A stretch of 64,000 nucleotides of DNA from Escherichia coli (GTDB lineage: Bacteria; Pseudomonadota; Gammaproteobacteria; Enterobacterales; Enterobacteriaceae). The translations under genes were made by a program, and so were the position numbers. Location: NCBI RefSeq assembly GCF_050920415.1, contig NZ_CP169309.1; one strand, given 5' to 3'. Of the stretch, positions 1,437 through 58,549 are shown piece after piece. Below the pieces are notes generated by a model. That model saw nothing but the letters and a program-made list of their open reading frames with translations, did not search any database and was not told the DNA's origin. Numbering within the stretch: the stretch's first letter is position 1; every line of letters starts with the position of its first letter.

Positions 1437-1543
1437 CATTTTGTCCTCATTATACTTCCATTTTCGTGCTGCAAAGACTGCCACAATGTGAGGTCGCCGT
1501 CACCACTTCAACTGGCGAAAGCGCCCTCATCCTGACATAATCC

Positions 1544-1559
1544 CTGTTCAAATCAACAG
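1544..1559. promoter_or_regulatory. LexA-box-like palindrome CTGTTCAAATCAACAG (CTGT-N8-ACAG) immediately upstream of yoaA GTG start
   Basis: Exact CTGT-N8-ACAG core in the yoaB-yoaA divergent region, 9 nt upstream of yoaA start. Confidence 0.5.
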
Positions 1560-1567
1560 GGGGTAGT

Positions 1568-3478
1568 GTGACGGACGATTTTGCACCAGATGGTCAGCTG
1601 GCGAAAGCAATACCAGGCTTTAAGCCGCGAGAACCACAGCGACAGATGGCGGTAGCCGTCACCCAGGCGATAGAAAAAAGCCAGCCGCTGGTGGTGGAAG
1701 CCGGAACCGGTACGGGCAAAACCTACGCTTACCTGGCCCCTGCGCTGCGGGCGAAAAAGAAAGTCATTATCTCGACCGGCTCAAAAGCGTTGCAGGATCA
1801 GCTCTACAGCCGCGATTTGCCAACGGTCTCAAAGGCGTTGAAATACACGGGCAACGTGGCGTTGCTGAAAGGGCGCTCAAACTATCTCTGCCTCGAACGA
1901 CTGGAACAGCAGGCGCTGGCGGGCGGCGATTTGCCGGTACAAATCTTAAGCGATGTGATCCTGCTGCGCTCCTGGTCCAATCAGACGGTAGATGGCGATA
2001 TCAGCACCTGCGTCAGCGTGGCGGAAGATTCGCAGGCGTGGCCGTTGGTCACCAGCACCAACGACAACTGTCTTGGCAGCGATTGCCCGATGTATAAAGA
2101 TTGCTTTGTGGTTAAAGCACGCAAAAAAGCGATGGACGCCGATGTGGTGGTGGTAAACCATCATCTGTTTCTGGCGGATATGGTGGTGAAAGAGAGTGGA
2201 TTTGGCGAACTGATCCCGGAAGCTGACGTGATGATCTTCGACGAAGCCCACCAACTGCCTGACATTGCCAGCCAGTATTTTGGTCAGTCATTCTCCAGTC
2301 GACAACTGCTCGACCTGGCAAAAGACATCACCATCGCCTACCGCACCGAATTAAAAGACACCCAGCAGTTACAAAAGTGCGCCGACCGCCTTGCCCAGAG
2401 CGCGCAGGATTTTCGCCTTCAATTAGGTGAGCCAGGTTATCGTGGCAACCTGCGCGAACTGTTAGCTAATCCGCAAATTCAGCGAGCATTTTTACTGCTC
2501 GATGACACCCTGGAACTTTGTTATGACGTGGCGAAACTGTCGCTGGGGCGTTCCGCCTTGCTGGATGCGGCATTTGAGCGCGCCACGTTGTATCGTACGC
2601 GGCTGAAACGGCTAAAAGAGATCAATCAGCCGGGCTACAGCTACTGGTACGAATGCACTTCGCGCCATTTTACTCTGGCACTCACGCCGCTCAGCGTGGC
2701 GGATAAATTCAAAGAATTAATGGCGCTAAAACCAGGTAGCTGGATCTTTACCTCAGCAACGCTGTCGGTGAATGACGATCTGCATCATTTTACCTCGCGG
2801 CTTGGCATTGAACAGGCAGAGTCGTTGCTGTTACCCAGCCCGTTTGATTACAGCCGCCAGGCGTTACTCTGTGTGCCGCGCAACCTGCCGCAAACCAATC
2901 AACCGGGCTCCGCACGGCAACTGGCGGCAATGTTGCGACCGATCATCGAAGCTAACAACGGTCGTTGTTTTATGCTTTGTACCTCGCACGCCATGATGCG
3001 CGATCTGGCCGAGCAGTTCCGCGCTACCATGACGCTTCCCGTTTTGTTGCAGGGGGAAACCAGCAAAGGGCAACTGTTGCAGCAATTTGTCAGCGCCGGT
3101 AACGCGCTGCTTGTGGCAACCAGCAGCTTCTGGGAAGGGGTGGATGTGCGTGGCGATACATTGTCATTGGTGATTATCGACAAGTTGCCGTTTACCTCAC
3201 CGGATGATCCACTATTAAAAGCGCGCATGGAAGATTGCCGTTTGCGCGGAGGCGACCCGTTCGATGAAGTACAGCTGCCGGATGCGGTCATTACTCTCAA
3301 GCAGGGGGTAGGGCGACTGATTCGCGACGCCGACGATCGAGGGGTTTTGGTGATTTGCGACAATCGGCTGGTGATGCGCCCTTACGGCGCGACGTTTCTC
3401 GCCAGTCTGCCGCCAGCGCCGCGCACCCGTGACATTGCCCGTGCGGTTCGTTTCCTTGCGATACCATCCTCCAGGTAA
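1568..3478 (+). CDS. yoaA: DinG-family ATP-dependent DNA helicase YoaA (636 aa), GTG start
   Basis: ORF track; Walker A AGTGTGKT, DEAH box FDEAHQL, Cys cluster typical of Fe-S helicases. Confidence 0.9.
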   Translation: MTDDFAPDGQLAKAIPGFKPREPQRQMAVAVTQAIEKSQPLVVEAGTGTGKTYAYLAPALRAKKKVIISTGSKALQDQLYSRDLPTVSKALKYTGNVALLKGRSNYLCLERLEQQALAGGDLPVQILSDVILLRSWSNQTVDGDISTCVSVAEDSQAWPLVTSTNDNCLGSDCPMYKDCFVVKARKKAMDADVVVVNHHLFLADMVVKESGFGELIPEADVMIFDEAHQLPDIASQYFGQSFSSRQLLDLAKDITIAYRTELKDTQQLQKCADRLAQSAQDFRLQLGEPGYRGNLRELLANPQIQRAFLLLDDTLELCYDVAKLSLGRSALLDAAFERATLYRTRLKRLKEINQPGYSYWYECTSRHFTLALTPLSVADKFKELMALKPGSWIFTSATLSVNDDLHHFTSRLGIEQAESLLLPSPFDYSRQALLCVPRNLPQTNQPGSARQLAAMLRPIIEANNGRCFMLCTSHAMMRDLAEQFRATMTLPVLLQGETSKGQLLQQFVSAGNALLVATSSFWEGVDVRGDTLSLVIIDKLPFTSPDDPLLKARMEDCRLRGGDPFDEVQLPDAVITLKQGVGRLIRDADDRGVLVICDNRLVMRPYGATFLASLPPAPRTRDIARAVRFLAIPSSR

Positions 3479-55866: not shown

Positions 55867-57401
55867 TAGCGGAGTCCTTGTCTGACATAACCTACCCATT
55901 TTGCGACTAACGCGGTCAGGGCAAAAATAATAAGCGGCAACAGTAGTTGCCATAAAGCCTGGGCGGCGAGAATGCCGTTGCTGCCGCCGCTGCTTAATGC
56001 CACCGCTTCAGTGGTGAGCGTCGGAAAACGCCCCGCGCCCAGCCACAGAGTCGGCATATACTGCGCAATACTGACTGAAAATCCTACCGCGAAGGCAATC
56101 AGCGCAGGGCGCAACATGAGTGGGCATTTCACGTAAAAGAAGATTTTGGCCCGCGACCAGCCCAGTGTTTGCGCAATCAAAATTAACCGTGAATCAATGC
56201 GCTGCCAGGCGGGTTGCAGGATAAACAGCATCCACGGCATTACCCACAGCAGATGCCCCCAGACCACCGCTGTCCAGCTCCCATCTATGTTCAGCCATAG
56301 CGCCAGCATGTACTGGCCCGCCACCAGCGGCAGAGCGGGTAATAAAATGGGCAACCAGAGCCACAACTGGCGACGCTTTGCCCCCCATTCCAGCCACAGC
56401 AGTAACAGGACCAAAGCGATAAACGTCGCCACCAGCCCCATTGTCAGGCTGTTGATGAGCGCTTCACTATTGATCGTCGACTGATCCGCGAGGATCGCCA
56501 GCAGAACCACACACAGCACACCGGTTAAGGGTAAAAAACTCGCCAGTGTATTGCCGGGTAATAAAGGCGTGGCGGGCTTACGAACGCCATCTACGCGGGG
56601 AATGGTGCACTGCCAGGCGCGCCAAAGTAAATAGCCCAGCAAAACGTAGACGGCGAGTAACAGCATCAGCAGCAGGCTGGCGAGTGCGCCTTTCATCTGT
56701 TGATCGGCGTCGCCTTGGGTTAACCACTGCCAGCTAATTACCGCCAGCGTCGGTGGATTACCCGGCCCGAGAATAATTGCCACATCCACGACCGACAACG
56801 ACCATGCCACAATAGCCAGCATCGCCATTGCCAGTGCAGGCGCGACGGAGGGCAACAACAACCAGTTCAGACATTGCCAGCGGCTGTAGCCCAGCGAATC
56901 CAGTACAATAACCTGCTGCAACAGCCGTTTCTCGCTCAATACTGCCGCTAAGATCCACAGCAGAAATGCGCTTTCTTTCACCGCCAGGGTAAGGCCCAGC
57001 CCAATACCCAATTTATCCATCGGCGGAGTGAGAAAAGGAAAAACCTGATAAACCAGGCCACCTTCAGCAAACAGCAACAGGGCGCTGGTGGCAAAAGCCA
57101 CATGGGGAATGGCGAGCAGCCACGGCAGACGGGCGCACATACGCTGCCATTTCGGCCCAGGCCACAGCGCCATAATTACCAGCAGGGCAATCGTCAATGC
57201 GCCGAGCGCCGCGATGGTTGTTGACACCAGTGTTGCCAGTAAGGCCTGCGGTAGCTGCGGATCGGCAAATAACGCCTGCCAGTGTGCCAACGACAAAGCA
57301 GGCGATATCAGCGTGAGAGCTGCCGGGATCAGCGGTGCATAAATCACCGCCACCATCGCCCACAGCAACAAGATTAATGCGTACCGTAACGGTGTAGCCA
57401 T
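55866..57401 (-). CDS. ynjC: ABC transporter permease YnjC (fused double permease)
   Basis: ORF track 55866..57425; multi-TM. Confidence 0.85.
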   Translation of the reverse strand: MATPLRYALILLLWAMVAVIYAPLIPAALTLISPALSLAHWQALFADPQLPQALLATLVSTTIAALGALTIALLVIMALWPGPKWQRMCARLPWLLAIPHVAFATSALLLFAEGGLVYQVFPFLTPPMDKLGIGLGLTLAVKESAFLLWILAAVLSEKRLLQQVIVLDSLGYSRWQCLNWLLLPSVAPALAMAMLAIVAWSLSVVDVAIILGPGNPPTLAVISWQWLTQGDADQQMKGALASLLLMLLLAVYVLLGYLLWRAWQCTIPRVDGVRKPATPLLPGNTLASFLPLTGVLCVVLLAILADQSTINSEALINSLTMGLVATFIALVLLLLWLEWGAKRRQLWLWLPILLPALPLVAGQYMLALWLNIDGSWTAVVWGHLLWVMPWMLFILQPAWQRIDSRLILIAQTLGWSRAKIFFYVKCPLMLRPALIAFAVGFSVSIAQYMPTLWLGAGRFPTLTTEAVALSSGGSNGILAAQALWQLLLPLIIFALTALVAKWVGYVRQGLR

Positions 57402-58540
57402 TCTTGTTCCAGCGCATTTACCCAACCTGCGTGCGGTTCAGCCAGTACCGGCGGCAGATCCTGCGGCATTCTTGATTGCAATATTTCATGCTGCCCGTCA
57501 GGCAGTTTTTGCGGATCGAGAACCGATGGATCGCCCCAGACAGCAGGGTCTGCTTTACGTAGCTGTGCATCAGGTGAGAGCAGGAAATTGGCAACCACCT
57601 TCGCCGCAGCACTGGCATTCGCGTTAGCAGGAATGGTGACAAAATGCACGTTGCCAATCATCCCCTCGTTAAAACCAAAACTGTAACTGCTTGCCGGCAA
57701 ATCGCCACTGGCGATTTTTTGCTGGGCATGTGCAGGATTAAAGGTCAGCGACAGGCGCAATGTGCCAGCTTTCAGCAGAGCATCCATCCGCGCGGGCGAA
57801 GGTGGGAAATCCTTTCCTTCGCGCCATAAATACGGATGCAGCGCATCAAGATATTGCCACAAGGGCGCAGTGATACGGGCGAAAGTCGCATCGTTCGGCG
57901 CTTCTTTTAATGCTGCGGGATCTGGCGTCAGCATAATCAGTAACTGTTCAAGAAATGCGGTGCCAGTAAAGTCTGGCGGGCGCGGATAGGTAACCGTGCC
58001 AGGATTGGCTGTAGCAAATTCCAGTAAGGCTTGCGGTGTTTGTGGTGGCTGTGGCGTAACATCGCGGCGGGCGATAAACGTCAGTTGAGCGCCGCCCCAC
58101 GGCGATTCTGCGCCTTCGACAGGTACAGAAAAATCTTCCCGTACCGGCAGTTGTGTATCGACATAACGCCAGTTTGGCAGAGTCTCAGCCCAGCCGGTTT
58201 GCAGTAAATTGGCCTCTTTTAAAGTGCGGAAGTTTTCGCCGTTCACCCAGAGCAGATCCACCGAACCGCCTGTCTCGCGCCCGGCTGCGGCTTCGGTCTG
58301 AATGCGCTTCACCGCGTCTGCGGCATCCGCCAGGCGGACAATCTTCAGGTTTATATCATAATGGGTTTTCATCTCGCCGCTAACCCAGTCGAGATAGCGG
58401 TTAATTGCGGTATCGCCGCCCCAGGCGTTAAACCAGACGGTTTGCCCTTTGGCCTCATTTTTAACTTCCTGCCAGTCACTGGCATGTGTTGCCAGAGAAA
58501 ACAGCGATAACAATCCCAGCAACCACCCACAATGGCGCAT
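57374..58540 (-). CDS. ynjB: ABC transporter periplasmic substrate-binding protein YnjB
   Basis: ORF track 57374..58543; signal peptide. Confidence 0.85.
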   Translation of the reverse strand: MRHCGWLLGLLSLFSLATHASDWQEVKNEAKGQTVWFNAWGGDTAINRYLDWVSGEMKTHYDINLKIVRLADAADAVKRIQTEAAAGRETGGSVDLLWVNGENFRTLKEANLLQTGWAETLPNWRYVDTQLPVREDFSVPVEGAESPWGGAQLTFIARRDVTPQPPQTPQALLEFATANPGTVTYPRPPDFTGTAFLEQLLIMLTPDPAALKEAPNDATFARITAPLWQYLDALHPYLWREGKDFPPSPARMDALLKAGTLRLSLTFNPAHAQQKIASGDLPASSYSFGFNEGMIGNVHFVTIPANANASAAAKVVANFLLSPDAQLRKADPAVWGDPSVLDPQKLPDGQHEILQSRMPQDLPPVLAEPHAGWVNALEQEWLHRYGTH

Positions 58541-58549
58541 CATCTCTCC

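Follow-up and report, generated by a model that had tools for sequence, protein, structure and literature searches.

The palindrome upstream of yoaA in Escherichia coli is very probably a weak LexA operator whose core and position are kept across enterobacterial genera

The DNA analysed here, referred to as the window, is a 64,000-nucleotide stretch of an Escherichia coli genome that carries the divergent genes yoaB and yoaA (Table 1). In the region between them lies the palindrome CTGTTCAAATCAACAG, which, as read directly from the window sequence, occupies positions 1544–1559, exactly where the preliminary description of this DNA had placed a LexA-like CTGT-N8-ACAG motif. It has the invariant triplets of a LexA operator, CTG at 1544–1546 and CAG at 1557–1559, exactly 10 bp apart and related by dyad symmetry, and is the sole match to CTGT-N8-ACAG in the window. 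The motif had been described as lying 9 nt upstream of the GTG start of yoaA and as overlapping the translation start region. The figure of 9 stands as the difference between the coordinates; the bases between the end of the box and the GTG number eight, and the box starts 24 nt upstream of this codon. The overlap has to be corrected, as the start codon lies outside the box and it is the likely Shine–Dalgarno sequence AGGGGG that shares two bases with the 3΄ end of the operator. Positions 1000–2000 of the window are 100% identical to two complete E. coli genomes and 95–99% identical to 5,411 others, most genomes being about 97.5% identical, and K-12 MG1655 equals the window across 1430–1575, the entire intergenic region included. 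Thus, the experiments published with K-12 apply to the sequence of the window.

Table 1. Features of the yoaB–yoaA region, in window coordinates
Feature	Position	Strand	Basis or remark
yoaB CDS, RidA family, divergent neighbour	1092–1436	−	RefSeq annotation mapped from K-12; ORF list
yoaB–yoaA intergenic region	1437–1567		131 bp
Putative −35-like block of yoaA: CTGGC (1512–1516), hexamer TGGCGA (1513–1518)	1512–1518	+	matches TTGACA at 3/6 positions
Conserved block CTGACATAAT	1532–1541		
Putative extended −10 of yoaA, TGaCATAAT; hexamer CATAAT (1536–1541)	1533–1541	+	invariant in 80/80 sequences
Full operator 20-mer CCCTGTTCAAATCAACAGGG	1542–1561		
Probable LexA operator core, CTGT-N8-ACAG, equal to CTG-N10-CAG with N10 = TTCAAATCAA	1544–1559	.	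sequence read; same box mutated in PMC8378479
Likely Shine–Dalgarno sequence AGGGGG for the GTG start	1558–1563	+	sequence read; G-run kept in most orthologs
yoaA CDS, 636 aa, GTG start, DinG/XPD-family helicase, the regulated gene	1568–3478	+	ORF; RefSeq 'DNA repair helicase YoaA'

The LexA operator of yoaA has been described and experimentally tested before, and its finding here is not new. It was predicted by Courcelle et al. 2001, with a heterology index (HI) of about 13, and studied by Sutera et al. 2021 (J Bacteriol 203:e00228-21; PMC8378479), and the published box is the same CTG-TTCAAATCAA-CAG at the same position, with no difference from ours; the latter authors place it 24 nt upstream of the yoaA ORF, in agreement with the distance from 1544 to 1568. 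According to their report, a PyoaA::luxCDABE fusion carrying the upstream intergenic region was rapidly induced by azidothymidine (AZT), most of the induction was lost in a lexA3(Ind-) strain, the LexA of which is non-cleavable, and replacement of CTG(N)10CAG by CCC(N)10GGG, the N10 being that given above, resulted in a high constitutive expression that AZT did not raise any further. Published experiments thus establish that damage induces yoaA, that this depends on LexA cleavage and that mutation of the box brings about derepression. The box mutation also alters the bases right after the −10, so that a change in promoter strength could account for some of its effect; the lexA3 result is independent of that mutation. 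In an RNA-seq study, which counts yoaA among the classical SOS genes, AZT induced the gene 4.0-fold, with a lexA3 dependence of 1.6-fold only (PMC11228462, Table 1). Induction of yoaA by damage was likewise seen in microarrays, and a ciprofloxacin time course recorded a rapid but weak induction (~1.6-fold) of yoaA and none of yoaB (PMC11002266). A 2025 review includes yoaA in the LexA regulon. The parts of the yoaA and LexA literature consulted here contained no direct LexA binding experiment (EMSA, footprint or ChIP). A survey of the Salmonella SOS regulon does not list yoaA; a LexA box is nevertheless present upstream of the gene in S. enterica subsp. arizonae, and its absence from that list is therefore not evidence against the site. 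The SOS control of yoaA that the preliminary description had predicted is in this way borne out by the lexA3 reporter, the box mutant and the RNA-seq data, and by the conservation of the triplets described below, and the reporter fusion it had proposed as a check, with its loss of most AZT induction in lexA3(Ind-), was already in print.

One observation from the same reporter does not follow from LexA cleavage. A late induction with AZT that depends on the phase of growth persists in lexA3, amounting to about 30% of the wild type and to 6-fold over the untreated culture at 180 min (PMC8378479), and it could be that a second signal, independent of LexA cleavage, also makes use of the LexA operator or overrides it; this signal could come from a further protein or from an influence of nutrition on how far LexA occupies the site. 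In the box mutant this late phase does not show up as additional induction, Sutera et al. themselves suggest another way in which repression by LexA might be relieved (PMC8378479), and weak operators are the easiest to vacate. We nevertheless consider a second input unlikely: neither a second factor nor a second motif has come to light, −35 and −10 elements can account for the other conserved blocks of the intergenic region, the copy number of the plasmid or the physiology of lux late in growth could lie behind the late phase, and the RNA-seq data offer no independent support for it (PMC11228462). The reading that we prefer is that of a LexA operator under the control of LexA cleavage.

What can be said from the score of the site? 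By chance, 0.45 CTGT-N8-ACAG cores are expected per window, and one or more are present in 36 of 100 dinucleotide shuffles, so that the core match by itself is no better than chance. For the looser motif CTG-N10-CAG we counted 26 occurrences in the window versus 12.6 expected, a number reached in none of 100 dinucleotide shuffles; this excess is probably an effect of codon usage and not a surplus of operators, the probable cause being that CTG and CAG are common codons. Heterology indices were computed with a Berg–von Hippel/Lewis matrix derived from the 18 documented operators of E. coli given in PMC3009722, and as working cut-offs we took about 12.6 for shown binding and values under 15 for candidates. 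The 20-mer CCCTGTTCAAATCAACAGGG has an HI of 15.35 in the forward and 18.0 in the reverse orientation, which is weaker than all 18 reference operators (leave-one-out maximum 12.8, dinG), and ranks 19th of the 63,981 window positions by heterology-index/PSSM scoring. The published value of about 13, that of Courcelle 2001 as quoted in PMC11228462, makes yoaA tie with polB as the weakest of the classical SOS list given there. By score, then, the yoaA operator would be classed as weak or borderline (HI 13–15.4), and score-based scanning would not have singled out the site. The preliminary description was right to regard a single chance match as plausible in 64 kb and location as the main support, since score and core alone are unconvincing. 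It had also held that a poor index together with expression that does not respond to LexA would speak against the operator; the index, which it had advised to compute, is indeed weak or borderline, but expression does depend on LexA.

Two positions with better scores were examined as operators and rejected. The best of the window, at 925–944 (TTATGTTTATTTATATAGTT; HI 12.0), is without the CTG and CAG cores and corresponds to an AT-rich stretch between yoaB and a minus-strand ORF of 119 aa (371–730); that it scores best without both cores indicates that the index under-penalises the loss of the invariant triplets. The other, at 58007–58026 (GGCTGTAGCAAATTCCAGTA; HI 13.4), has an intact CTG-N10-CAG, lies inside a minus-strand ORF of 389 aa (57374–58543) and is probably a chance match. 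Neither of them is promoter-proximal with intact cores.

Compared with the consensus of the gammaproteobacterial LexA operators, TACTG(TA)5CAGTA, the yoaA box shares the CTG/CAG triplets, the 10-bp spacing, the A/T-rich centre and the dyad symmetry, and its 20-mer matches the consensus of the 18 operators, TACTGTATATATAAACAGTA, at 9 of 20 positions, the six CTG/CAG bases included. Its flanks are poor, with CC and GG in place of the outer TA and TA, and its spacer lacks the TA alternation; these two features make it the worst-scoring of the set with the 18-operator matrix. Similar weak or asymmetric SOS operators are found at polB (dinA) and at dinG, a paralog of yoaA, both of the CTG-N10-CAG type with a high HI (published values 13 and 8.6, respectively), and like that of yoaA they are placed near the beginning of a DNA-repair gene, the induction ratios being modest. 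The yoaA box has both tetramers, CTGT and ACAG, perfect, whereas the left half of the dinG operator reads TTGG.

The evidence that the present analysis adds comes from the orthologs. For the comparison we took a single yoaA locus from each species, 80 in all, from about 20 named enterobacterial genera; 79 of them had enough upstream sequence, and these together with the window make the 80 sequences (65 unique) in which the columns were counted. A CTG-N10-CAG is found 3΄ of the invariant CTGACATAAT in all 79 loci, the box following the block after 2 nt in 78 of the 80 sequences and after 3 nt in the other two. Both triplets are invariant (80/80 sequences, 65/65 unique), while the boxes comprise 21 distinct 16-mers and nine of the ten inner positions vary. 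Fixed triplets around a variable spacer are the pattern that would be expected of a LexA operator, in which recognition by the protein falls on the triplets and variation in the spacer is tolerated. The boxes nearer to the consensus (HI 9.3–12.3) are those of Enterobacter, Klebsiella, Raoultella, Kluyvera, Phytobacter and Atlantibacter, and the weakest (HI 14.5–16.5) those of Escherichia, Citrobacter and Salmonella. Within E. coli, a 36-mer that spans the −10 and the box is present with at least 99% identity in 5271 of 5426 complete genomes. A different layout of the locus was noted in E. coli strain SCPM-O-B-8794 (L005:730-1165), in which the yoaB–yoaA intergenic region measures about 470 bp versus 131 bp here and unrelated AT-rich sequence takes the place of all that would lie farther upstream than about −45 from yoaA; the LexA box, the CTGACATAAT block and the −35-like sequence, which reads TGGCAT, are kept intact.

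These data bear on the possibility that the palindrome is a chance one with no regulatory role and that the induction of yoaA by damage is indirect. The expected number of cores and the HI of 15.35, 19th in the window, would fit with it, and many LexA-dependent genes without a box are reported to be under indirect regulation (PMC11228462). A chance palindrome would not account for triplets that stay the same, and equally far from the −10, in 80 of 80 sequences with a changing spacer, nor for a box mutation that derepresses the promoter and abolishes induction (PMC8378479). Pure chance is accordingly rejected by the conservation pattern and the mutagenesis, and we give it hardly any credence. 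Taken together, we are highly confident that LexA (SOS) controls yoaA through this palindrome as its operator, a weak but genuine one that probably overlaps the transcription start; on our side this rests on the identity to K-12 and on the conservation of the core and of its position.

How would LexA repress at this site? We infer the yoaA promoter from the sequence match, from the invariance of the −10 block and from the promoter activity of the cloned fragment, in which the putative −10 falls (PMC8378479). The hexamer TGGCGA sits 17 bp upstream of CATAAT, and in the ortholog alignment the −35-like columns are 86–98% conserved and the spacer between them and the −10 is variable, at 34–62%. 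A scan of positions 1000–1800 for the sigma-70 consensus returned no plus-strand promoter, because the rule demands four of six matches in the −35. The box adjoins the putative extended −10, as an operator should adjoin its promoter. Upstream of the −35-like block, the segment 1476–1511 (GACTGCCACAATGTGAGG...GTCACCACTTCAA) shows good conservation from E. coli to Salmonella; judged by its sequence, it may hold the divergent yoaB promoter, with the minus-strand TTGAAG as a −35-like element.

In the mechanism we propose, a LexA dimer would bind the two triplets of the operator, which starts 2 nt past the −10 and would cover the probable transcription start, at about 1547–1550. Bound LexA may then occlude RNA polymerase, both the promoter occlusion and the direct contact of LexA being inferred. 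DNA damage or replication gaps would lead to active RecA and to LexA self-cleavage, and yoaA would be derepressed. With an operator as weak as this one (HI 13–15), repression and induction would be expected to be modest, as is the case with the about 4-fold response to AZT and the about 1.6-fold response to ciprofloxacin.

The palindrome could alternatively act at the RNA level, as a hairpin in the yoaA 5΄ leader (UCCCUGUU-N6-AACAGGGG) that masks the G-run of the Shine–Dalgarno sequence or affects mRNA stability, with no part for LexA. The window RNA does allow an 8-bp stem of −10.2 kcal/mol with the 3΄ arm entering the ribosome-binding G-run, but this fold is no better than those of shuffled sequences (z = −1.14; 30 of 200 shuffles at least as stable), the leader had no Rfam match at E ≤ 1, and the stem pairs beyond CTG/CAG are not kept, pair −1/16 being present in 28% and pair 4/11 in 32% of the unique types and pair 3/12 showing uncompensated T-C and G-A combinations in the orthologs. 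In addition, the operator-dead mutant, as given by its primer (GTCCCTTCAAATCAAGGGAC; GTCCCTT...AAGGGAC), retains an equally stable hairpin (−10.4 kcal/mol) and is yet fully derepressed in a transcriptional lux fusion (PMC8378479), and with the −10 where we place it, at 1536–1541, transcription would begin within the box, so that the 5΄ arm would be absent from the mRNA. The hairpin reading is thus rejected, and there is very little chance that it is correct.

What are the implications of a LexA operator at yoaA? [quoted passage not shown] SOS control through the operator explains why YoaA rises only when replication is in trouble, a point already present in the literature. It is conceivable, and in our opinion doubtful, that the weak half-sites of Escherichia, Citrobacter and Salmonella let LexA be displaced or out-competed near stationary phase, which would explain the late induction in lexA3; in that case the dosage of YoaA would have been tuned in this lineage to the nutritional state as well as to DNA damage. 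To the published LexA operator of yoaA the present analysis adds the likely extended −10, the setting aside of the hairpin, the failure of score-based scanning to single out the site, and the conservation footprint. New in the latter is that about 20 enterobacterial genera have kept both the operator and the precise place it takes after the putative extended −10.
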